Source of the DNA: an archaeon | GTDB lineage: Archaea > Iainarchaeota > Iainarchaeia > Iainarchaeales > 1-14-0-10-31-34 | Assembly (NCBI GenBank): GCA_043819075.1 | Contig: JBDRFE010000029.1 | Coordinates: 1-61,160 of the forward strand | DNA: 61,160 nucleotides | Direction: 5' to 3' | In this document: positions 5,241 to 48,253 of the stretch, one piece after another | How the letters are laid out: every line of letters begins with the position of its first letter | Numbering within the stretch: position 1 is the stretch's first letter | The notes under the pieces: model-generated | The model's input: only the letters and a program-made list of their open reading frames with translations | Databases searched by the model: none | What the model was told of the DNA's origin: nothing | Position numbers and translations under genes: made by a program

Positions 5241-5921
5241 TTATTTCAGCCTCGCCTGAATTTTTTCGCTGGTTAATTCCTTTAAAGCATCTGAGGCAAT
5301 CCATTTAGCGCTCTTTGAATTAATTTTCTTAATCTTTTTCCCCCATGCAATGGCTTTTTTGTTTAGTTTTTTGTTTCTTTTGCCGATCTGCCTTAAAGCC
5401 CAGTTAACAGCTTTTTTAACAAAATTCCTTTCATCAGCTGAATGCTTTTTTATGAGAGGAAAAAATTTTTCAAATTCCTTGTCTTTTGCTTTCTTGTCAT
5501 GAACAGATAAACAAGCCATTAACACAAAGCCGGCTCTTTTCACAAACTCTTCTTTTCTTTCACTCCATTCACTTGCTTTCTTCCAGGCAAACTCTGTTTT
5601 GTCAAACAAGTTTGAACAAACCTGGTCGCATACATCCCATGAATCAAATTCTTTTACCCAGTCTTCTAACTGTTTTTCTGTTGTTTTTCCTGTTTCATCC
5701 ACATATCCTGCCATAATTCTTGCTTCATGGACTCCGGTTTTCCATAAAGCTAAAGCAAGTTCGTGGCTGAACCCGTGTTTTTTTGCGAGCTCTCTTACAA
5801 CGTAAACGCTTACCCCAAAAGCTTTTTCTGTTTTAATGCCGAATCTAGCCATTCCTTTTCGGTTTTTTTCGTTTCCGCGCTTTTTTAGTTCACGCAGAAT
5901 TCCTTTTATTTTACCATCCAT
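5241..5921 (-). CDS. DNA alkylation repair protein (AlkD-like HEAT-repeat family)
   Basis: DSWDVCDQVC, W...EEFVKRAGF, DERNFVKKAVNWALRQIGKR motifs; start moved to MDGKIK. Confidence 0.88.
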   Translation of the reverse strand: MDGKIKGILRELKKRGNEKNRKGMARFGIKTEKAFGVSVYVVRELAKKHGFSHELALALWKTGVHEARIMAGYVDETGKTTEKQLEDWVKEFDSWDVCDQVCSNLFDKTEFAWKKASEWSERKEEFVKRAGFVLMACLSVHDKKAKDKEFEKFFPLIKKHSADERNFVKKAVNWALRQIGKRNKKLNKKAIAWGKKIKKINSKSAKWIASDALKELTSEKIQARLK

Positions 5922-7083
5922 AGTGTTTTGCCTGGCTGTAGCCAAAAGCTTTTGTTGCAGGAATTATTCCCTTGAAAATAAATCCTGGCTTTTGGATTAA
6001 CAGCCTTAAAACCATTGTTATTTTTTCTATTGCAGAAACCTCGCCTACATTTTCCGGCAAAAATCCTGCAATAAAATCAAGTTCTTTGTCAGAAAAATCG
6101 TATAATGCTGTCCTTCCCTTAAGTATTTCAGAATAATCTGGGAACTCTTTTTTCCATAATCTTTCGTATTCACTGAGAGTTTCTTTTGAGAAATCATTTT
6201 TTTCCACTGCTTTTTTTACAACCTGTGCGGCAAACTTTCCGGAAGTCAACCCCAAAGAGGTTCCTCCTTCAAACATAGGGGAAGTGAATCCAGCTGCATC
6301 GCCGACAAGAATTAACCCTGAATCAAATGTTTTTTGCATTGGCCCTGAACAAGGGATTAACCCGCCAAAAGTTTTCACCACAATTTTGTTTTCCCATTTC
6401 ATTTCTTTAATGAATTCATCCAAGAAAAATTTTGCCTTGTTTTTCTGGTTGGTAACTAATCCGACATTAGCCCTTCCGCCTGATTTTGGAATCATCCATA
6501 AGTATCCGTCAGGTGCAAGTTTTGGCCACAAAAAAAAGTCAAGATAGCCTGTTTCCGGAATATCCTTTAATTCATACTGCATCCCAATAACACTTTCAAA
6601 CCTTTTATTGAGATTTAGTTTTGCTGAAAGAAAAGAGGCAGAGCCTGTTGCATCAATTAAAATTTTTGCATTGAATTCAGTTTTGTCAGAGCATTTTACT
6701 TTCCAGAAATTGTTTTGCCTTACTGCATCAGTTACTTTAGAGTTAAGCCTTTTTTGTGCACCATTTTTTTCTGCTTCCCCTGCAATCCATTGTTCGAATT
6801 TGTGTTTTTCAAGGACAAAGCCTTTTTCTTTTACATAAAAGCTTTTTTTGCCGGGAAAAATAACTCTTACTCCGTTAACTTCTTTTGAAATAACTTCTTT
6901 GGGAAAATTCATTCCAAGCCTTTGTATGGCTAATTCAGAAAGGCATTCCCCGCAATGAACTGGCTTCCCAATTGTCTTGTGTTCTTCCAGAAGCAGTGTT
7001 TTTAATCCAAATTTGGCTGAATAAAGCGCGGCAGAACATCCTGCTGGCCCTGCACCGATTACAATCACGTCAAATTCTTGCAT
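5911..7083 (-). CDS. Geranylgeranyl reductase-family FAD oxidoreductase
   Basis: DVIVIGAGPAG, PVHCGE, GY.W..PK, LVGDAAG..SP..EGG motifs. Confidence 0.88.
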   Translation of the reverse strand: MQEFDVIVIGAGPAGCSAALYSAKFGLKTLLLEEHKTIGKPVHCGECLSELAIQRLGMNFPKEVISKEVNGVRVIFPGKKSFYVKEKGFVLEKHKFEQWIAGEAEKNGAQKRLNSKVTDAVRQNNFWKVKCSDKTEFNAKILIDATGSASFLSAKLNLNKRFESVIGMQYELKDIPETGYLDFFLWPKLAPDGYLWMIPKSGGRANVGLVTNQKNKAKFFLDEFIKEMKWENKIVVKTFGGLIPCSGPMQKTFDSGLILVGDAAGFTSPMFEGGTSLGLTSGKFAAQVVKKAVEKNDFSKETLSEYERLWKKEFPDYSEILKGRTALYDFSDKELDFIAGFLPENVGEVSAIEKITMVLRLLIQKPGFIFKGIIPATKAFGYSQAKHYGW

Positions 7084-41582: not shown

Positions 41583-43886
41583 ATGGGAACAGTTTATGCT
41601 CTTGCTTCAGGAAAAGGCGGAGTGGGGAAAAGCCTGGCTTATGATGAATTTGTTAGCTTGTCTAATGGTTCTGTTATTCAAATAGGTCCATACATAGACA
41701 AACTGATTGAAGAAAGAAAAGAAGAAGTCAAACAATTAATCTGTAAGACGACTGAAGGAAAAGAAGAAATATTTGAAGTGCTGCAGCCTTCCACAGACTT
41801 AATTCTGGACACTGTTGAATTTAATGCTGAAAAACAGGAAATTATTTCTGAAATAAATCTTCCAGTTGCCTTGATGAGAAAGCCGGCTCCAAAAAAATTA
41901 ATTAAAGTTGAGTGTGCAGCAGGAAGCATTTCTGTTACTCCAGAGCACAAATTCATTGTGATGAGAAAAGGAAAGCTTGAAAAATTAAGGGCAGATGAAA
42001 TAAAAGAAAAAAAAGATTATCTTGTATTGCTGAACCAGTGCAATTCTTTTGAATTCCTTGAAGAAAAGATTTCAGCTGAAGCTGCTGAATTGTTAGGTTA
42101 TGTCACTGGAGACGGATACATGGAAGGCTATAAAATCCATGTTTTTTGTTCAGATAACAGCCTTCTTCCAAAAATAAGAGAAAACTTTATGGCTGTTTTT
42201 GGTTCATATAAAGAAAATGTTTCAAGAAACTTGCACAGAATTTCTTTTTTCAGAACAGGAACAGTGAAAGAATTGTATGAAAAATGTGGAGTAAAAATTT
42301 CAACTGCAGGAAGCAAGGAAGTCCCATCAGAATTATTTAACTCTTCAAATAATTCAGTGGCGGCTTTTTTGAGGGCGCTGTTTGACTGTGACGGTTCAGC
42401 CCACGTTTCCAGAAGGCAGATAGAATTTGATTCAAAAAGCAAAAAACTTGTTTTTCAGGTTGCATCCCTTTTAAGGACAAGATTTGGGATACTATCCCAG
42501 ATAAAGCCAACATTCAAAATTGCCAGAAACGGAAAAATGAAGGAAAAAGGAGAATACTGGAGAATGCATTTAACAGGAAACAACGCAGCAAAGTTTGCTG
42601 AATTTATCGGGTTCAACGATTCGGGAAAACAAGCAAGAATGATGGAACAGCTTAACAGCAGTAAAGCAGTAAACACAAACATTGACGTTTATCCTGTCGG
42701 AAAAATATTGAAACAAATCAGGCAAGAATCAAACATTTCTGCGCCAGCAATCGCAAAGACAATGAATTGTTCAAAGCAGATGATTTACGAATATGAATGG
42801 GAATATTACGCTTTATCAAAAGAAAAAGTAAAAAATTACATTAATGCATTTGAATCTCTTGGGGTTGAAAGCAAAATATTGAATTGGCTTAAATATTTAG
42901 TTAACTCTAATCTTGAATTCAGAAGAATTGAGAAAGCCAATGAATTTGAATACTATCATCCTTTTGTTTACGATTTTCAGGTTTCAGATAAAGGAGGCCA
43001 TTTTACTCATGCAACCGGAATAATAGTTTCAAATACAACTATTACAGCAAACCTTGGGATTGCATTGGCTCAAAAAGGAAAAAGAGTTTTATTGGTTGAC
43101 GCAGACATTGCAATGGCAAACTTAAGCCTGTTATTAGGAATGCAGTCTTCTCCGATTACTTTGCATGACGTTTTATTAGGCGAGAGTTCGTTGCAGGATG
43201 CAATCTATGACGGTCCAGGCGGAGTATCTTTTGTTCCATCTGGTTTAAGCTTTGAAAGCTATAGAAGAGTTGATTCAGCTAGATTAGCCGGAGTAATTGC
43301 TTCAGTTAAAGACGATTTTGACTACATTTTATTGGATGCGCCTGCAGGAATTGAAACAAACGTCATGTCAGCCTTAAGCGCTTCAGATAATGTTATTTTA
43401 ATTACAATGCCTATTTCTCCTTCAATTGCAGATGTATTAAAAACAAAAATTGTTGCTGAAAGGCTTGGAGCAAAGCCAATTGGCTTGATAGTTAATTTTG
43501 TGAGAGGCGAAAGAGGGGAAGTCATGCCAGAAGACATAATGAAAATGCTTGAACTGCCAATTTATGGTTTGGTTCCATACGACGAAGACATTAGAAAGTC
43601 TTTTATGCGCGAAAAAATAATGCCCACAATTTTATTTAAGCCAAACTCTAAAGGAGTTGAAGCAATAAACCTTGTGGCAGAAAAACTTACAGGAGTTTCA
43701 ACTGTAATCAGAATGAAAAAAAAGGGGCCCATAACAAGATTTTTAAACAAGTTGTTTTCTATCTTTAAAAGGAAACCAAAACAGGAAAAACAATTAAAGG
43801 AAAGAATACAGGAAAAAAAAGAAGAAGAAAGCTATGAGGATTTGCCTGAAATAAGCGAGGAAAGCATTGAAATAGGGCAAGAGTGA
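41583..43886 (+). CDS. minD: MinD/ParA-family ATPase, intein-containing
   Basis: SGKGGVGK/TTITANLG Walker A split by intein; VLLVDADIAMANL, YILLDAPAG, VPYD motifs; charged tail. Confidence 0.9.
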   Translation: MGTVYALASGKGGVGKSLAYDEFVSLSNGSVIQIGPYIDKLIEERKEEVKQLICKTTEGKEEIFEVLQPSTDLILDTVEFNAEKQEIISEINLPVALMRKPAPKKLIKVECAAGSISVTPEHKFIVMRKGKLEKLRADEIKEKKDYLVLLNQCNSFEFLEEKISAEAAELLGYVTGDGYMEGYKIHVFCSDNSLLPKIRENFMAVFGSYKENVSRNLHRISFFRTGTVKELYEKCGVKISTAGSKEVPSELFNSSNNSVAAFLRALFDCDGSAHVSRRQIEFDSKSKKLVFQVASLLRTRFGILSQIKPTFKIARNGKMKEKGEYWRMHLTGNNAAKFAEFIGFNDSGKQARMMEQLNSSKAVNTNIDVYPVGKILKQIRQESNISAPAIAKTMNCSKQMIYEYEWEYYALSKEKVKNYINAFESLGVESKILNWLKYLVNSNLEFRRIEKANEFEYYHPFVYDFQVSDKGGHFTHATGIIVSNTTITANLGIALAQKGKRVLLVDADIAMANLSLLLGMQSSPITLHDVLLGESSLQDAIYDGPGGVSFVPSGLSFESYRRVDSARLAGVIASVKDDFDYILLDAPAGIETNVMSALSASDNVILITMPISPSIADVLKTKIVAERLGAKPIGLIVNFVRGERGEVMPEDIMKMLELPIYGLVPYDEDIRKSFMREKIMPTILFKPNSKGVEAINLVAEKLTGVSTVIRMKKKGPITRFLNKLFSIFKRKPKQEKQLKERIQEKKEEESYEDLPEISEESIEIGQE
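41631..43034 (+). mobile_element. Intein in MinD Walker A (468 aa) with LAGLIDADG and HTH-like insert
   Basis: SLAYDE start; VTPEH block B; LGYVTGDG and RALFDCDGS; VYDFQV block F; ends IIVSN before +1 Thr. Confidence 0.92.
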
Positions 43887-44252: not shown

Positions 44253-44978
44253 ATGCTTCGAATGATTGAAGAAAATGCTTCATTAAACAATATTTCAAAA
44301 CAAACAGGGCTGGCAAAAACAACGATTTATTATTATTCAAGAAAAATTATTGGAAAAAAGTATTTTGAACCAGAATTTGAACTGGAATACTCTGAAACTG
44401 AAGGAGAAATTGCAGGCATTTTTGCAGGTGACGGAAGCCAGTTTCATGATTCAGAAAGAGGCAGTTATCAGGTTAATGTTCATTTTGGAAAAACAGATTA
44501 TGTCTTTTATGTAAAGGATTTGTTTGAAAAATATTTCAACAAAAAGTTCAGGTTGCAACAGGAAAGCAGAGGGCGAAGCAGGTTATGCACTCAATCAAAG
44601 AAAATTTTTTGCCATTTCAAGAATTATCTGGAATATGATTCAAGGGTTAAGCACTCAACTGTTAAATTAAAATCACTGAATTTCCCTGAAAAATTCCTGA
44701 TTGGTTTTTTGAGAGGCTTTCTTGATACCGACGGCACAATATCGCTGTGTTCTGACAGGCCAATGAGAATAGTTTACACTACAACTTCAAAAGAGCTTGC
44801 CAGTCAATTAAAAACTATTTTAAGGAAATTTGATATTGATTGCGGAGGATATACTGCTAAACGTTTAAATTTAAAAGATTTGCATCAAGTTTATATTTTG
44901 GCAAGATCTAATGAACAGTTTTTGCAAAAAGTGAAACCATTTAAAAGGAAAAGGCTTGGGCCTCTAGTGTATCGGTAA
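44253..44978 (+). mobile_element. Free-standing LAGLIDADG homing endonuclease-like ORF with N-terminal HTH
   Basis: IAGIFAGDGS and FLRGFLDTDGT motifs; N-terminal ISKQTGLAKTTIYYY HTH; last codons are tRNA nt 1-21. Confidence 0.85.
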
Positions 44979-45029
44979 CATATGCCCTTGGCATGGGCAA
45001 GACGCCGGGTTCGATTCCCGGGAGGTCCA
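44958..45029 (+). tRNA. tRNA-Ala(GGC)
   Basis: Cloverleaf: acceptor GGGCCTC/GAGGTCC with G3:U70, anticodon arm TGCCC-TTGGCAT-GGGCA, T arm CCGGG-TTCGATT-CCCGG, discriminator A. Confidence 0.95.
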
Positions 45030-45102
45030 CTTACATTATTTTTTCTCTTTTCAGAAATCTTTATATTTTATAACAACCCTAATTGATAGGATTGATTAAA
45101 AA

Positions 45103-46851
45103 ATGGCTGACAAAGAAACACTGTATTCAAGCATTAAGAAACTGCTTTCACTGAATGTATCAGAAGACGAAATAATAATGAATTTAGAGGAAGTCGGAAT
45201 AAACAAGCAGGAAGCAAAAAGCCTTTTAAGGGAAGTCAAGGCACAGCAGTCAGCCAAAAAAGAAGAAAAAAAAGAAGAACCAGTTAAAACACAATTCAAG
45301 GAAACAAGAAAAGAACTGCAAAAAAAAATCCTGAAAGAAAAAGAATTCATTGAAAAAGAGCCAGAACAGCCAAAGCCAAGAGAAAAACCCAAAGAAGTTT
45401 TTTCAAAGCTTCATGCAGGTGAAACAGAGGTATGGGAGAAAGGAATCCTGACAGTAGTTAATGAAAGGCTGGATGAAATAGAAAAAATCAGGGACAACAT
45501 AGAAGAAATAATTAACGAAAAAATAAAACAAGAACTTGAAAAAGAATCAAAAAAAATTAAAGTGTTATTGGAATCGCAAAGAGAATTGCTGGTTGACAAA
45601 ATAAATTCTTCTCTTGAAGTGAAATCAAAAGAATTAAGCTCTGGAATCGAGTCAAAGCTCATTGCATTAAAGGAAATAAAGATTTCTCTTTCAGAGACAA
45701 ACAGGAAAACAGAAGAAAAAGCAAAAGAAGATGAATTAATCCTTGGGGAAATTAAGTCAAAATTGAATGAAGTTGAAGTATCAAAAAAAGGCCTTGTCAA
45801 AGCATTAAAGAATGAAATGGAAGACTTAAAGAATGAATCAAAGCAGTTCATGTTTGATTCATCCAAGCAAATAGAAGAGCTTGATGACAGGGTAAACAAA
45901 GCCTTGGAGCTTGAATCAAAGATAACTGAAGGCTTAGTGAATACAGCTGAAAAAAAAGTTGAAGAAATAACTGTAAAACAGACTGAACGCATTTCAAGGG
46001 AACTTGAAAAAAAACTTAATGCATTCGAGGAATTAACAAGAAAAATTAATCCAAAACAGACAGAAGAAAACATTAGAAAGCTTTCAGCCGACTTTGAAGT
46101 AAAGATTTCAAACATTATAAGAGAAAAAGAAGATGAAATGGATGAAGTAATTAAGCTGAAAATAAAGGAAATAGAGGAAATAAAAAAGAAAATGGAACAA
46201 GATTCAACTGCAAAAAAGATTGCAGCTGAAATGGAAATGAAAATGGAGGCTTTCAGGATGAACCTTCAGAAAGAAATAGATGAATCCCTGCAGGAAATAG
46301 AGAACACTAAAACAGAATTAAAGAAATTTATTGCAGCCCAGCTGGCTGAATCTGCAACAGAATCACAGGGACAACTTGAAAGCCTGTACGAGCAAAGAAG
46401 GAAAGAGCTTGACAGCTTTCAGAAACAGATAATAAAAAACACTAATTTAACTGAATTCAAGCAGAAAATAGATGAACTTGATATATTCAAAGACCATTTC
46501 ATTAAAACCATAAAAAAAAGCCTTGAAGACATGAATGCCCAAAAAGAAGAAATTGAAGTTTTGTTGGAAAAAAGAGAAAAACAAGTAGAAGAAAGAATAA
46601 ATGAAGTTGACTCTAAACTAAAAGAATTAGATGAATTTGAAAAATCTTTTGCAAAAGAAATGGGATTAAAGTTAGAGCAGATAAGCAGAGCCAAGTCATT
46701 AAGACAGGAAGTTCGGGAAATAAGGGCGAGAACGCCTGAAACCAGAACTTCTTCTGCGCCAGAAAAAGAAAAATCGGTTAAAGCAACAAAAACTGCGTTC
46801 AAAAGCGGGAAACAAAAAAAGTCTTCTTCTCCCGGCAGAGGAATACGTTAA
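45103..46851 (+). CDS. Long coiled-coil hypothetical protein
   Basis: 582 aa, E/K-rich heptad pattern, no TM or NTPase motifs. Confidence 0.75.
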   Translation: MADKETLYSSIKKLLSLNVSEDEIIMNLEEVGINKQEAKSLLREVKAQQSAKKEEKKEEPVKTQFKETRKELQKKILKEKEFIEKEPEQPKPREKPKEVFSKLHAGETEVWEKGILTVVNERLDEIEKIRDNIEEIINEKIKQELEKESKKIKVLLESQRELLVDKINSSLEVKSKELSSGIESKLIALKEIKISLSETNRKTEEKAKEDELILGEIKSKLNEVEVSKKGLVKALKNEMEDLKNESKQFMFDSSKQIEELDDRVNKALELESKITEGLVNTAEKKVEEITVKQTERISRELEKKLNAFEELTRKINPKQTEENIRKLSADFEVKISNIIREKEDEMDEVIKLKIKEIEEIKKKMEQDSTAKKIAAEMEMKMEAFRMNLQKEIDESLQEIENTKTELKKFIAAQLAESATESQGQLESLYEQRRKELDSFQKQIIKNTNLTEFKQKIDELDIFKDHFIKTIKKSLEDMNAQKEEIEVLLEKREKQVEERINEVDSKLKELDEFEKSFAKEMGLKLEQISRAKSLRQEVREIRARTPETRTSSAPEKEKSVKATKTAFKSGKQKKSSSPGRGIR

Positions 46852-46878
46852 AAGGCTGTTAACTCTATCAAGCTGAAA

Positions 46879-47061
46879 GCGAAGATATTGCTTCGTTGCT
46901 CGCGCTCGAAACCGTTAACGCGAAGCATATACGGCTTTACGCCGCAGCCGTCACGTTCGGCTGGTGTACGCGCACCACGTAAAGTGGTGCTAGCACGGCT
47001 TTATGCCGTGCGCCGTCACACTCGCACGGAAGCGAGTCGGTGCTCGCGGGCGAAACCGCGA
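46879..47061. repeat. GC-rich tandem hairpin array abutting the tRNA-Val 3' end
   Basis: At least seven stems, e.g. GCACCAC-GTAAA-GTGGTGC, GCACGGC-TTTAT-GCCGTGC, CAGCCG/CGGCTG, ACTCGC/GCGAGT, TCGCGG/CCGCGA. Confidence 0.8.
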
Positions 47062-47133
47062 TGGACCTGGGCGGAATCGAACCGCCAGTCTTCTGCACGT
47101 CAAGCAGACGTCATGCCACTAGACTACAGGTCC
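47062..47133 (-). tRNA. tRNA-Val(GAC)
   Basis: Minus strand: acceptor GGACCTG/CAGGTCC, anticodon arm TCTGC-TTGACGT-GCAGA, T arm GGCGG-TTCGATT-CCGCC, discriminator A. Confidence 0.95.
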
Positions 47134-47235
47134 AAAACCCTTTCCAAAGGGTTTAACGAAATGCACAGGGCAAGCCTGTGCTGCTTTTTTAAATTAACAA
47201 AAATATGGCTTAAAATCTTGTGTTAGGTAAGCTTT

Positions 47236-48144
47236 TTAAATTTTAGATAATTTACTGCACACAGAACAGATTTTTCCAGAGCTTGGGGCGCCGCATATTC
47301 CGCATGAACCTTCTTTTTGTTTTGTTTTAATCAATGGCTTTAAGTTTTCAAAGCTTGAAAGAATTGAATAAAATGTTCCAGGAAACTTGTTTTCCATTTC
47401 ATTTAACATTGACCTGAAAGCATTTCTTTTAGCCTGCCAGGAAAAAGGGCAGCAGTTTTCACTGAAATGATTTATTTCATTTAAGCTGGCGAAAGCAATA
47501 ACCTCTTTTTCCGGAGTCAAATACAACGGCTTAATCCTTGGAACAAGATTTTTTCCGCCCTCGGTTTTTGCCCCAAGCATCGCCATTCTCGTAAAATCGT
47601 TGTCAAAAAAATTCATTGAAATGCTTTGAATTTCGTCATCCAAGTTATGGCCTGTTGCAAGTTTTGTTGCATTTAATTCCATTGCCCCTGTGTTTAATAG
47701 TTTTCTTCTGAATGGCCCGCAAAAAGAACAAGTTGAACCCAAGGTTTTTTTTCTGCCTGTTTTCTTCATTACTTCAGTCATTTGTGTTCCAAGCTTTTCC
47801 TTGAATGAAAGGATTTTGAATTCAATGTTTTTTTCGTTTAAGGTTTTTATTGCAGCCTTAATTGCTTTGTCCCTGTAATTTGGTATTCCTTCATCAATCA
47901 GCAAAGCCTTTATTGTCTGTGGCTTTGAATAAAATTTGTGCATTAAATGCAGTAAAACCATTGAATCTTTTCCGCCTGAAACCCCTATTGCAATAACATC
48001 GTTTTTGTCAAGTAATTCATATTTTCTTATTGTTTTCCTGAACCTTTGCTCGAAAAAATGATTAAAGTGTGTGCTGCAAAAATTGTGCGGCCCGTAAGCT
48101 AAAAAAAATTTTGCTGTACTATTGCATCTGTCGCATTTAGCCAT
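47236..48144 (-). CDS. TtuA/Ncs6/Ctu1-family tRNA 2-thiolation protein
   Basis: N-terminal CxxC, SGGKDS PP-loop, CSFC, GHNLDD, C-terminal CxxC..CxxC. Confidence 0.88.
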   Translation of the reverse strand: MAKCDRCNSTAKFFLAYGPHNFCSTHFNHFFEQRFRKTIRKYELLDKNDVIAIGVSGGKDSMVLLHLMHKFYSKPQTIKALLIDEGIPNYRDKAIKAAIKTLNEKNIEFKILSFKEKLGTQMTEVMKKTGRKKTLGSTCSFCGPFRRKLLNTGAMELNATKLATGHNLDDEIQSISMNFFDNDFTRMAMLGAKTEGGKNLVPRIKPLYLTPEKEVIAFASLNEINHFSENCCPFSWQAKRNAFRSMLNEMENKFPGTFYSILSSFENLKPLIKTKQKEGSCGICGAPSSGKICSVCSKLSKI

Positions 48145-48253
48145 ATAAGGACAGCATAAACACAACCTTTAAAACCTCTTGCGTTAAAAAATTATTATTA
48201 AAGGTAAAATTTAACCTGATTTTATTTTGTGTTTTTTTGTTGAAAGTGATTTA

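Follow-up and report, generated by a model that had tools for sequence, protein, structure and literature searches.

The window analysed here is the whole of contig JBDRFE010000029.1 (61,160 nt; contig C29 of assembly GCA_043819075.1) from an archaeon of the order Iainarchaeales. It carries a tRNA-Val(GAC) gene, at 47062–47133 on the minus strand, that is surrounded by a cluster of GC-rich hairpins. The cluster is read, at a probability of about 0.75, as a mosaic of short palindromic repeats without coding capacity, nested and in tandem, i.e. selfish DNA, that occupies the trailer and the leader of tRNA-Val. It is not a new RNA gene but an instance of an undescribed archaeal repeat family.

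A BLAST search of the cluster against its own genome (designated G000; C-numbers refer to its contigs) gives 24 matches. The central 129 nt match C2:102034–102162 at 97.7%, C2:123994–124090 at 97% and C60:56930–57060 at 84%. These three copies start a few bases past the 3′ ends of tRNA-Gly(GCC, intron-bearing), tRNA-Arg(TCG) and tRNA-Pro(GGG), respectively. An earlier sequence-only reading of this stretch had suggested that other tRNA loci be searched for the same units, and these are thus present at other trailers, near-identical at two of them. In alignment A1 the tRNA-Val, tRNA-Gly(GCC) and tRNA-Arg composites are near-identical from CGCGAGCACCGA to TGCTTCGC, approximately 135 nt with 3–4 differences, but the head hairpin and the distal part are different in each of the three. 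The tRNA-Arg copy carries in addition a nested 56-nt insert with its own M1-type hairpin (described below), flanked by a 7-nt GCACGGC repeat. Thus the mosaic grows by insertion of unit into unit, and the block was recently copied between trailers.

Anatomy of the hairpin cluster

At least nine stems lie within 46863–47061, and the first of these begins one base past the tRNA-Val discriminator, A47062. After this first stem, TCGCGG/CCGCGA, eight further stems follow one another without spacers down to position 46880. The G+C content of 46900–47099 is 62.5% and that of adjacent stretches approximately 30–35%. The sequence-only reading had described a GC-rich cluster around tRNA-Val with seven or more back-to-back stems, the first at the discriminator, and two further hairpins on the 5′ side at 47135–47154 and 47163–47181; the sequence and coordinates are as it gave them. 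The words that it noted as recurring are also present, GTGACGGC and GGTTTCG twice each, and RTAAA and TTTAY loops both occur. It had ruled out CRISPR as well, in agreement with units that are non-identical, abutting and palindromic and with the lack of regularly spaced identical direct repeats in the cluster.

Proceeding from the tRNA on the minus strand, the first module is the M1 head (47037–47061), TCGCGG-TTTCGC-CCGCGA plus the tail GCACCGA, with its stem at 47044–47061, one base after the discriminator. M2 follows at 47013–47040 (minus), CCGA-[ACTCGC-TTCCGT-GCGAGT]-GTGACGG, with its stem at 47020–47037; the CCGA...GTGACGG frame in which this hairpin sits is common to M4, and M2 is identical in four composites. 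The twin hairpin at 46972–47011, to which no strand is assigned, reads GCACGGC-ATAAA-GCCGTGC-TA-GCACCAC-TTTAC-GTGGTGC on the tRNA strand, the first stem being at 46993–47011 and the second at 46972–46990. M4 (46945–46971, minus) is GCGTACAC-CAGCCG-AACGTGA-CGGCTG with its stem at 46945–46963, and the small hairpin H6, CGGC-GTAAA-GCCG, is at 46932–46944 (minus). Next is a second, degenerate M1, termed M1′ (46890–46926, minus), which is AACGGTTTCGAGCGCGAGCAACGA with one mismatch to the M1 pattern and an outer stem GCTTCG/CGAAGC. The degenerate second hairpin and tail of the M1′ unit occupy 46863–46895 (minus) and consist of CGAAG-CAATAT-CTTCG (46880–46895) and then GCTTTCAGCTTGATAGAG. This last module is 88% alike, in inverted orientation, to a tRNA-Gly leader module at C2:101788–101821. 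The mosaic ends at 46863, 12 nt from the stop codon of a convergent gene.

The recently copied block extends over 46920–47048 (minus) and comprises the M1 tail, M2, the twin hairpin, M4 and H6 as far as TGCTTCGC; it is common to two other tRNA trailers. On the 5′ side of tRNA-Val, U2 (47135–47154, minus), AAACCCTTT-GG-AAAGGGTTT, is AT-rich and perfectly palindromic and lies one base away from nucleotide +1 of the tRNA. U1 (47163–47181, minus), GCACAGG-CTTGC-CCTGTGC, has the GCAC...GTGC frame seen in the twin hairpins and is probably situated at, or just past, the transcription start of tRNA-Val.

Individual modules are found at other tRNA genes of G000 as well. M4 lies directly 5′ of tRNA-Glu(TTC), tRNA-Ser(TGA) and tRNA-Ser(GGA). 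U1–U2 matches C59:36825–36873 at 96%, inverted, behind tRNA-Ser(GGA), and the AAACCC palindrome is the end that touches the tRNA in both places, 5′ of tRNA-Val and 3′ of tRNA-Ser. U2-type palindromes occur at other tRNAs and in tRNA introns, and they abut the 5′ end of the orthologous tRNA-Val in G001, G002 and G005 (G001–G008, G018, G022, G178 and G182 denote genomes of relatives). The leader ...GTGCTCAAACGGCGAAACGTT directly before the tRNA is the reverse-complement form of an M1 trailer and is present at two tRNAs of G000 and at tRNA-Val of G003 and G004.

Several tRNA introns of G000, 76–185 nt in length, are swollen by the same GC hairpins and by AT-rich perfect palindromes, AACCTTTTT..AAAAAGGTT. 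The tRNAs with these inflated introns are at C2:102178–102397, C59:9770–9943, C36:1901–2081, C71:2829–2994 and C14:5061–5178, and some of them are missed or mislabelled by ARAGORN.

The M1 head family

A set of 196 genomes of the order was searched with the pattern CNCGN-TTTCGN-NCGNG followed by NG-NNN-CGA, with at most one mismatch allowed. M1 is found in 27 of these genomes, and its distribution is patchy; in genus g33 only 5 of approximately 18 species have it. Each of the six species of the genus to which the window's organism belongs has 3–20 copies, and G022, G018 and G182 carry 18, 12 and 10 copies, respectively. As a control, the pattern read backwards gives at most two matches per genome. 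Stem pair 2–15 is Watson-Crick in 93 of 100 distinct copies, with four pair types represented.

Nine of the 20 M1 copies in G000 begin 0–4 nt past the 3′ end of a tRNA that is on the same strand, with a binomial P of ~1e-23 to 1e-31. A further four are distal in the same hairpin clusters, one is found behind a tRNA that ARAGORN missed, and one behind a fragment, about 13 nt long, of the tRNA-Glu 3′ end. In the last case (C9:2037–2060, minus strand) the M1 unit is preceded by ...CTCGGTCGGAGCATTTT, approximately the last 13 nt of tRNA-Glu(TTC) plus a TTTT linker, and it is situated 3 kb from the real tRNA-Glu, which bears its own M1. Thus the unit seems to have moved along with a piece of the tRNA end. 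M1 is also found inverted, far from tRNAs, and in spacers of ribosomal-protein operons. In distant genomes it heads a two-hairpin unit of 66–123 nt in which the second hairpin is variable and the tail AT-rich.

Insertion footprints

For 62 M1 copies, the 40 nt 5′ of the head were compared with the sequence 50–140 nt 3′ of it and scored against 200 shuffles. Flanking direct repeats that at most 1 of the 200 shuffles matches are displayed by 13 of the 62 copies. In distant carriers, M1 units are flanked by target duplications of 11–30 nt. G182 has a perfect 19-nt repeat of tRNA-Ile nucleotides 1–19 and a repeat of 21/22 nt of a tRNA-Ser 3′ end; in G022, 11–12 nt of the tRNA-Arg and tRNA-Pro 3′ ends are duplicated; G178 has a 15/15-nt duplication and G018 duplications of 13/14 and 27/30 nt, the 27/30-nt one in a ribosomal-protein operon spacer. 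The head end of the units is sharp, at 0–3 nt from the repeat, and the other end is ragged.

Locus L066 of G018 (C28:49500–58500) contains three M1 two-hairpin units, at ~1216–1315, 6276–6366 and 6808–6923, which lie in the S3/L29, L32e/L19e and L19e/L18 spacers of a ribosomal-protein operon, all in the same orientation and antisense to the mRNA. Each is between imperfect duplications of 13–30 nt, with the upstream stop codon and the downstream Shine-Dalgarno/ATG rebuilt. A TATA-like AATTATTA is present at the upstream side of each of these units.

Footprints are also found in G000. At 98 nt downstream of tRNA-Gln(TTG) on C60 there is a decayed copy, 21 nt long, of the 3′ end of this tRNA, with an M1 directly after it, and an 11-nt candidate duplication is at C27:5908. 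Direct repeats of the 3′ part of a tRNA downstream of the insert are present at the C60 tRNA-Gln and at loci L058, L033 and L038. The long target duplications at other carriers thus indicate that the M1 unit arrived by insertion.

At locus L098 (G018:C2) an 18-mer, CAACTCAACRCTGAGCCT, is found at 2439–2456, 2546–2563 and 5358–5375, two of these directly before M1 heads. Rather than a target duplication, this 18-mer may represent a 5′ extension of a single M1 subfamily. A rule of insertion at the 3′ foot of any stem was considered and rejected; it fits the tRNA-adjacent and back-to-back copies but fails for the operon-spacer copies and for the G182 copy that abuts tRNA nucleotide 19.

Twin hairpin and strand symmetry

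The twin hairpin has the pattern GCRC-NNN-RTAAA-NNN-GYGC-TA-GCRC-NNN-TTYAY-NNN-GYGC. It is found at 16 loci in G000 and is confined to the six genomes of the genus, with none in the other 190 of the 196. Since its form is its own reverse complement, it matches both strands at every mismatch-free locus listed. It pairs a 'flip' loop (RTAAA) with a 'flop' loop (TTTAY), i.e. it alternates in orientation. The three unconstrained inner pairs per stem are Watson-Crick in 96/96 cases in G000, and 14 different inner-stem triplets occur across the genus. Of all twin-hairpin stem pairs, 451/462 are perfect, which suggests that something maintains them. The genome as a whole is also rich in such structures, with 235 GC-rich perfect hairpins with stems of at least 6 bp in G000 vs 58 in a shuffled genome.

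The 200-nt stretch folds better than its shuffles on either strand, with z = −2.75 on the tRNA strand (2/200 shuffles fold equally well) and z = −3.17 on the opposite strand (0/200). Mismatches in M1 stems are G-T vs A-C 3 vs 3 and 7 vs 3, and those of stems in regions around tRNA genes 3 vs 5. An excess of G-U over A-C, as a sign of constraint on an RNA strand, is not seen, the mismatches being few. The strand-symmetric twin, the mirrored 5′/3′ placement of modules, the equal folding of both strands and the lack of a G-T excess argue for a DNA-level element, as does an intron hairpin whose loop is flipped between two homologous contigs.

These contigs are C2 (101600–103150) and C36 (1560–2760), which are homologous over tRNA-Val(TAC), a small open reading frame, the intron-containing tRNA-Gly(GCC) and tRNA-Gly(TCC). 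Either the bin contains two strains or a duplication has diverged. tRNA-Gly(TCC) is near-identical in the two, similar genes show ~80% identity, and the remaining tRNA exons and the protein gene common to both are ~75–90% alike, but every leader, trailer and intron module is different. Behind tRNA-Gly(TCC), one of the contigs has an M1 unit and the other has none. The tRNA-Gly(GCC) intron hairpin has opposite loops, GTACGGC-TTTAT-GCCGTAC vs GCACGGC-ATAAA-GCCGTGC. Such differences between modules are the behaviour of fast-turning selfish DNA and not of a conserved RNA.

The orthologous locus in relatives

All 9 of the relatives examined show synteny of the PP-loop ATPase gene with tRNA-Val(GAC), but the flanks of the tRNA differ in every one; most of them share the full order of PP-loop ATPase, tRNA-Val and convergent coiled-coil gene. 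In G001, G002 and G005 the 5′ flank is an AT-rich palindrome abutting +1, and the 3′ flank is an unrelated mosaic of ~330 nt in G001, short and of different content in G002, and begins directly with M2 in G005. G003 and G004 both show an M1-like leader in inverted form; on the 3′ side G003 has M1 and then other units, and G004 AT-rich hairpins only. The 5′ flank of G008 displays no hairpin element, the end of a gene being close to +1, and its 3′ flank is a simple M1 plus second hairpin. G022 likewise has no hairpin element seen on the 5′ side and carries three M1-like hairpins on the 3′ side. In G006, which belongs to another genus, both flanks are short, AT-rich and free of hairpins. GC hairpins behind the orthologous tRNA-Val are absent in G004, G006 and G007. 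The genus of G007, also a different one, is without M1 and without the twin hairpin, yet a repeat fills the tRNA-Val leader of G007; it is a different one, with several GGTATCGG words and hairpins (L019), and the 3′ flank is hairpin-free.

RNA families, partner genes and transcript processing

Searches of the window, the distant copies and 20 other clusters with Rfam 15, at the gathering threshold and with E-values up to 10, matched only tRNA and rRNA. A known Rfam family, which the sequence-only reading had named as a finding that would speak against its proposal, is therefore not found for the cluster at either setting. Signal recognition particle RNA, RNase P RNA, C/D and H/ACA guides and K-turns were considered and rejected, as their defining boxes are lacking and the units are repeats. 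An autonomous partner beside the identical G018 copies was likewise looked for, and the neighbours are only ribosomal-protein and surface-protein genes. No related autonomous insertion sequence was seen beside the copies examined in G018 and G000, for which no whole-genome screen was made.

RNase Z is encoded in G000 (345 bits) and protein subunits of RNase P are encoded in the window. No oligo-T run occurs on the way from tRNA-Val to where the cluster ends; the first, a T4, is at 46850–46853 and a T7 is a few tens of bases further on. A TATA-like TTTAAAAAA is found ~25 nt upstream of U1. With no oligo-T before the cluster end and this box upstream, the mosaic is probably transcribed with tRNA-Val. 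As judged from sequence, it would be a passive passenger that RNase Z and RNase P then remove.

Origin of the mosaic

Two layers may be distinguished in the mosaic. The older would be a two-hairpin unit of ~65–120 nt with a sharp M1 head, scattered patchily through this DPANN order, and the younger, confined to the genus, would consist of small hairpins with RTAAA loops together with M2, the twin hairpin and M4. A stretch of about 135 nt of this younger layer appears to have been copied recently, as one block, among the M1-bearing trailers of at least three tRNA genes. The most likely routes would be ectopic recombination or gene conversion via the shared M1, or further insertion. One breakpoint of the block is inside M1 and the other at TGCTTCGC, directly ahead of M1′, which would make recombination or gene conversion via M1 the simplest of these. 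RNase Z and RNase P would trim the mosaic from the tRNA-Val transcript, and being discarded in this way would explain why insertions are tolerated there. The hairpins themselves would act at the DNA level, for spread or for maintenance. At most, as a side effect, the mosaic might form a two-way 3′-end barrier between the convergent tRNA and protein genes.

A further and rather unlikely step is that the insertion sites of the elements are set by the tRNA-maturation machinery, and that they represent a protein-less mobile element of a new kind. RNase Z would then set the site after the discriminator, RNase P that before +1 and the splicing endonuclease that in introns. Entry would occur with long, variable target duplications and without a transposase of known class or a resident reverse transcriptase, possibly through a structure-specific host nuclease or through template switching in replication on tRNA genes folded in single-stranded DNA. 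The tRNA-Val mosaic would be a record of repeated hits at one site.

Several observations weigh against a mosaic of selfish repeats. No enzyme that might move them is apparent. Y1/RAYT (REP-associated tyrosine transposase, PF01797) has 0 matches in G000, G001, G002, G003 and G005, and control genomes were matched. Reverse transcriptase, searched with the PF00078 model (RVT_1) only, is present in 26 of the 196 genomes and absent from G000 and from 25 of the 27 M1 carriers. A LAGLIDADG endonuclease at tRNA-Ala, 2 kb away, was rejected as a helper, since its homologues are in 82 of the 196 genomes and do not track the carriers. The tRNA-Val mosaic itself shows no target duplication, with no copy of the tRNA-Val end within 450 nt, and the apparent target duplication at L044 may be part of a longer repeat. 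The near-perfect stems could reflect selection for mobility, arm-to-arm correction or a host function. Finally, the conservation of the TTTCG loop and CGA tail of M1 across families, and the near single-base precision of the head at the RNase Z site, could mean a role in tRNA 3′-end formation.

Alternative explanations

The last two points lead to the alternative that the M1 head, possibly together with the AT-rich palindrome at −1, serves as a cis-acting signal of the tRNA trailer or leader, to which the rest of the mosaic hitch-hikes; such a signal might act as a determinant for RNase Z or RNase P, terminate transcription or insulate convergent genes from each other. Heads lie 0–4 nt past the discriminator in 9–10 tRNAs of G000 and at 12 loci of three distant genomes, the stems covary, and an M1-type hairpin is found behind the orthologous tRNA-Val in G003, G008 and G022. 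Four congeners have the palindrome, with compensatory changes, directly against the 5′ end of the tRNA, and the cluster is between convergent genes with no oligo-T run before its end. However, only about a quarter of the G000 tRNAs have M1, 169 of the 196 genomes lack it altogether, and it is absent at the orthologous tRNA-Val in G004–G007. Inverted and tRNA-distant copies, those in ribosomal-protein operon spacers with target duplications, and the lack of a G-U bias are also difficult to reconcile with such a signal, which is decidedly unlikely. A SINE-like retroposon (short interspersed nuclear element), in which units are copied via RNA by target-primed reverse transcription, would account for target duplications of variable length (11–30 nt), for a constant head end with a variable other end, and for the coincidence of the head with an RNA-processing site. 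This is very unlikely, as only two of the 27 carriers have RVT_1, the copied block starts inside M1 and ends at TGCTTCGC and so is not bounded by transcript ends, and mirrored and flipped copies point to DNA.

The sequence-only reading had itself offered a structured RNA of about 190 nt, co-transcribed with the tRNA, as a second possibility and had favoured a repeat at the DNA level. In its full form this alternative is a stand-alone non-coding RNA that RNase Z would release from the tRNA-Val transcript and that would act in trans. Stable RNAs do form GC-rich islands in AT-rich genomes, and the tRNA strand folds better than shuffles, the stems show compensatory changes between copies, and the start is exactly at the RNase Z site. 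But the opposite strand folds at least equally well, the form of the central module is identical on either strand, no Rfam match or G-U bias is present, near-identical copies lie behind other tRNAs, one of them with a nested insert, and the content of the orthologous locus is different or absent in every relative. A non-coding RNA is thus extremely unlikely, and the earlier preference for a DNA repeat is borne out by the dispersed units, the strand-symmetric twin, the mirrored U1–U2 and the turnover of the locus. An assembly artefact, a mis-join or collapsed repeat, was the other finding named beforehand that would count against the cluster. G000 is a metagenome-assembled genome of 75 contigs with 2.9% contamination, and copies of the repeat are at some contig ends, e.g. 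C51:33–99. The locus, however, is 14 kb inside a 61-kb contig, its gene order is that of most relatives, and the family recurs in independent assemblies of six species, so that the likelihood of an artefact is negligible.

Genome and neighbouring genes

G000 has a size of 1.24 Mb, 34.6% G+C and an estimated completeness of 90.6%, and its gene content and size are consistent with a DPANN archaeon. The genes neighbouring the cluster are archaeal, e.g. ribosomal protein L15e, RNase P subunits p30 and Pop5, and the PP-loop ATPase. tRNA-Val(GAC) scores 68.6 bits with Rfam RF00005 and has no encoded CCA; ARAGORN gives its span as 47060–47134. Upstream of it is the PP-loop ATPase gene (47236–48165, minus), and the convergent gene is a 582-aa coiled-coil open reading frame that ends at 46851.

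Two other open reading frames of the window are of note. The LAGLIDADG endonuclease mentioned above is a 241-aa LAGLIDADG_3 open reading frame (44253–44978, plus strand) that overlaps the 5′ part of tRNA-Ala(GGC) (44958–45030), and G018 has a 65%-identical copy of it. A 767-aa MinD/ParA-like ATPase open reading frame (41583–43886, plus strand) appears to be interrupted by an intein-like insert, which has C as its first residue, ends in ...HATGIIVSN and has an endonuclease-like middle.

Comparison with known systems

Small palindromic repeats are familiar in bacteria and organelles. Rickettsia palindromic elements and the transposition of tRNA introns in Thermoproteales are examples of repeats that survive where they are harmless, either in frame or in spliced or processed parts of RNA. 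Docking at tRNA flanks is not known for either, and the sequences differ.

The present family combines docking at tRNA ends with single-base precision and strand-symmetric unit forms with a base unit that makes long, variable target duplications, in a genome without RAYT or reverse transcriptase. If its mode of spread can be established, a new insertion route for DNA, linked to tRNA genes, may come to light. In practical terms, such mosaics break assemblies and mimic structured RNA genes in screens for GC islands in AT-rich genomes. As they also inflate tRNA introns and flanks, annotators should mask them. No paper was found on small palindromic repeats of this kind in DPANN archaea; a survey of repetitive extragenic palindromes (REPs) covers archaea only broadly (PMC12306157), and in a 2026 census some archaeal repeats are labelled 'SINE' by RepeatMasker likeness only (PMC13343696).

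The elements share with SINEs the variable-length target duplications, one constant end and an association with tRNA genes, but differ from them in the absence of RVT_1 from G000 and most carriers, in their mirrored and flipped copies, and in a head that is a hairpin and not a tRNA-derived promoter. Like miniature inverted-repeat transposable elements they are small, non-coding and dispersed and leave insertion footprints; unlike these they have no terminal inverted repeats, and their duplications are of 7–30 nt and not of fixed length. The attachment-site scar of an integrated element differs as well, since the 3′ part of tRNA-Val is not repeated downstream at this locus.

With bacterial REPs, bacterial interspersed mosaic elements (BIMEs) and REPINs they have in common short GC-rich palindromes that are extragenic and form dispersed, lineage-specific families, with back-to-back clusters in alternating orientation, often between convergent genes. 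However, Y1/RAYT is missing from G000 and from four of five congeners, and the base unit makes target duplications of 11–30 nt, which REPs do not. By inspection the unit ends also lack the GTAG/CGTC tag of REPs, as the tag is defined in PMC3733652, the heads here beginning with CNCG or GCAC. The units dock at tRNA ends and lie in tRNA introns, and their copy number is low, 16–20 per family. Thus the term BIME-like, used in the sequence-only reading, holds for behaviour but not for membership, because RAYT is absent and the base unit makes target duplications.

REP/BIME mosaics and, closer still, the GC clusters and hairpin elements of mitochondria appear by analogy to be the nearest in behaviour. 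The mitochondrial elements merge, shuffle and vary between close relatives, are often found by tRNA genes, and no dedicated enzyme is known for them (PMC4478555, PMC2800124). Here the host is a cellular archaeal chromosome and not an organelle, the target duplications are long and variable and not the 2 nt (AG) of yeast GC clusters, and the mitochondrial elements are not described as docking at tRNA 3′ and 5′ ends with single-base precision. The resemblance to yeast GC clusters and to the double-hairpin elements of fungal and sponge mitochondrial DNA extends to hairpins, GC-rich and either single, double or triple, within a genome that is compact and AT-rich, to tandem multi-repeat motifs, to rapid merger and shuffling of units and their presence/absence variation, to the proximity of many copies to tRNA genes and to the lack of a known dedicated transposase.

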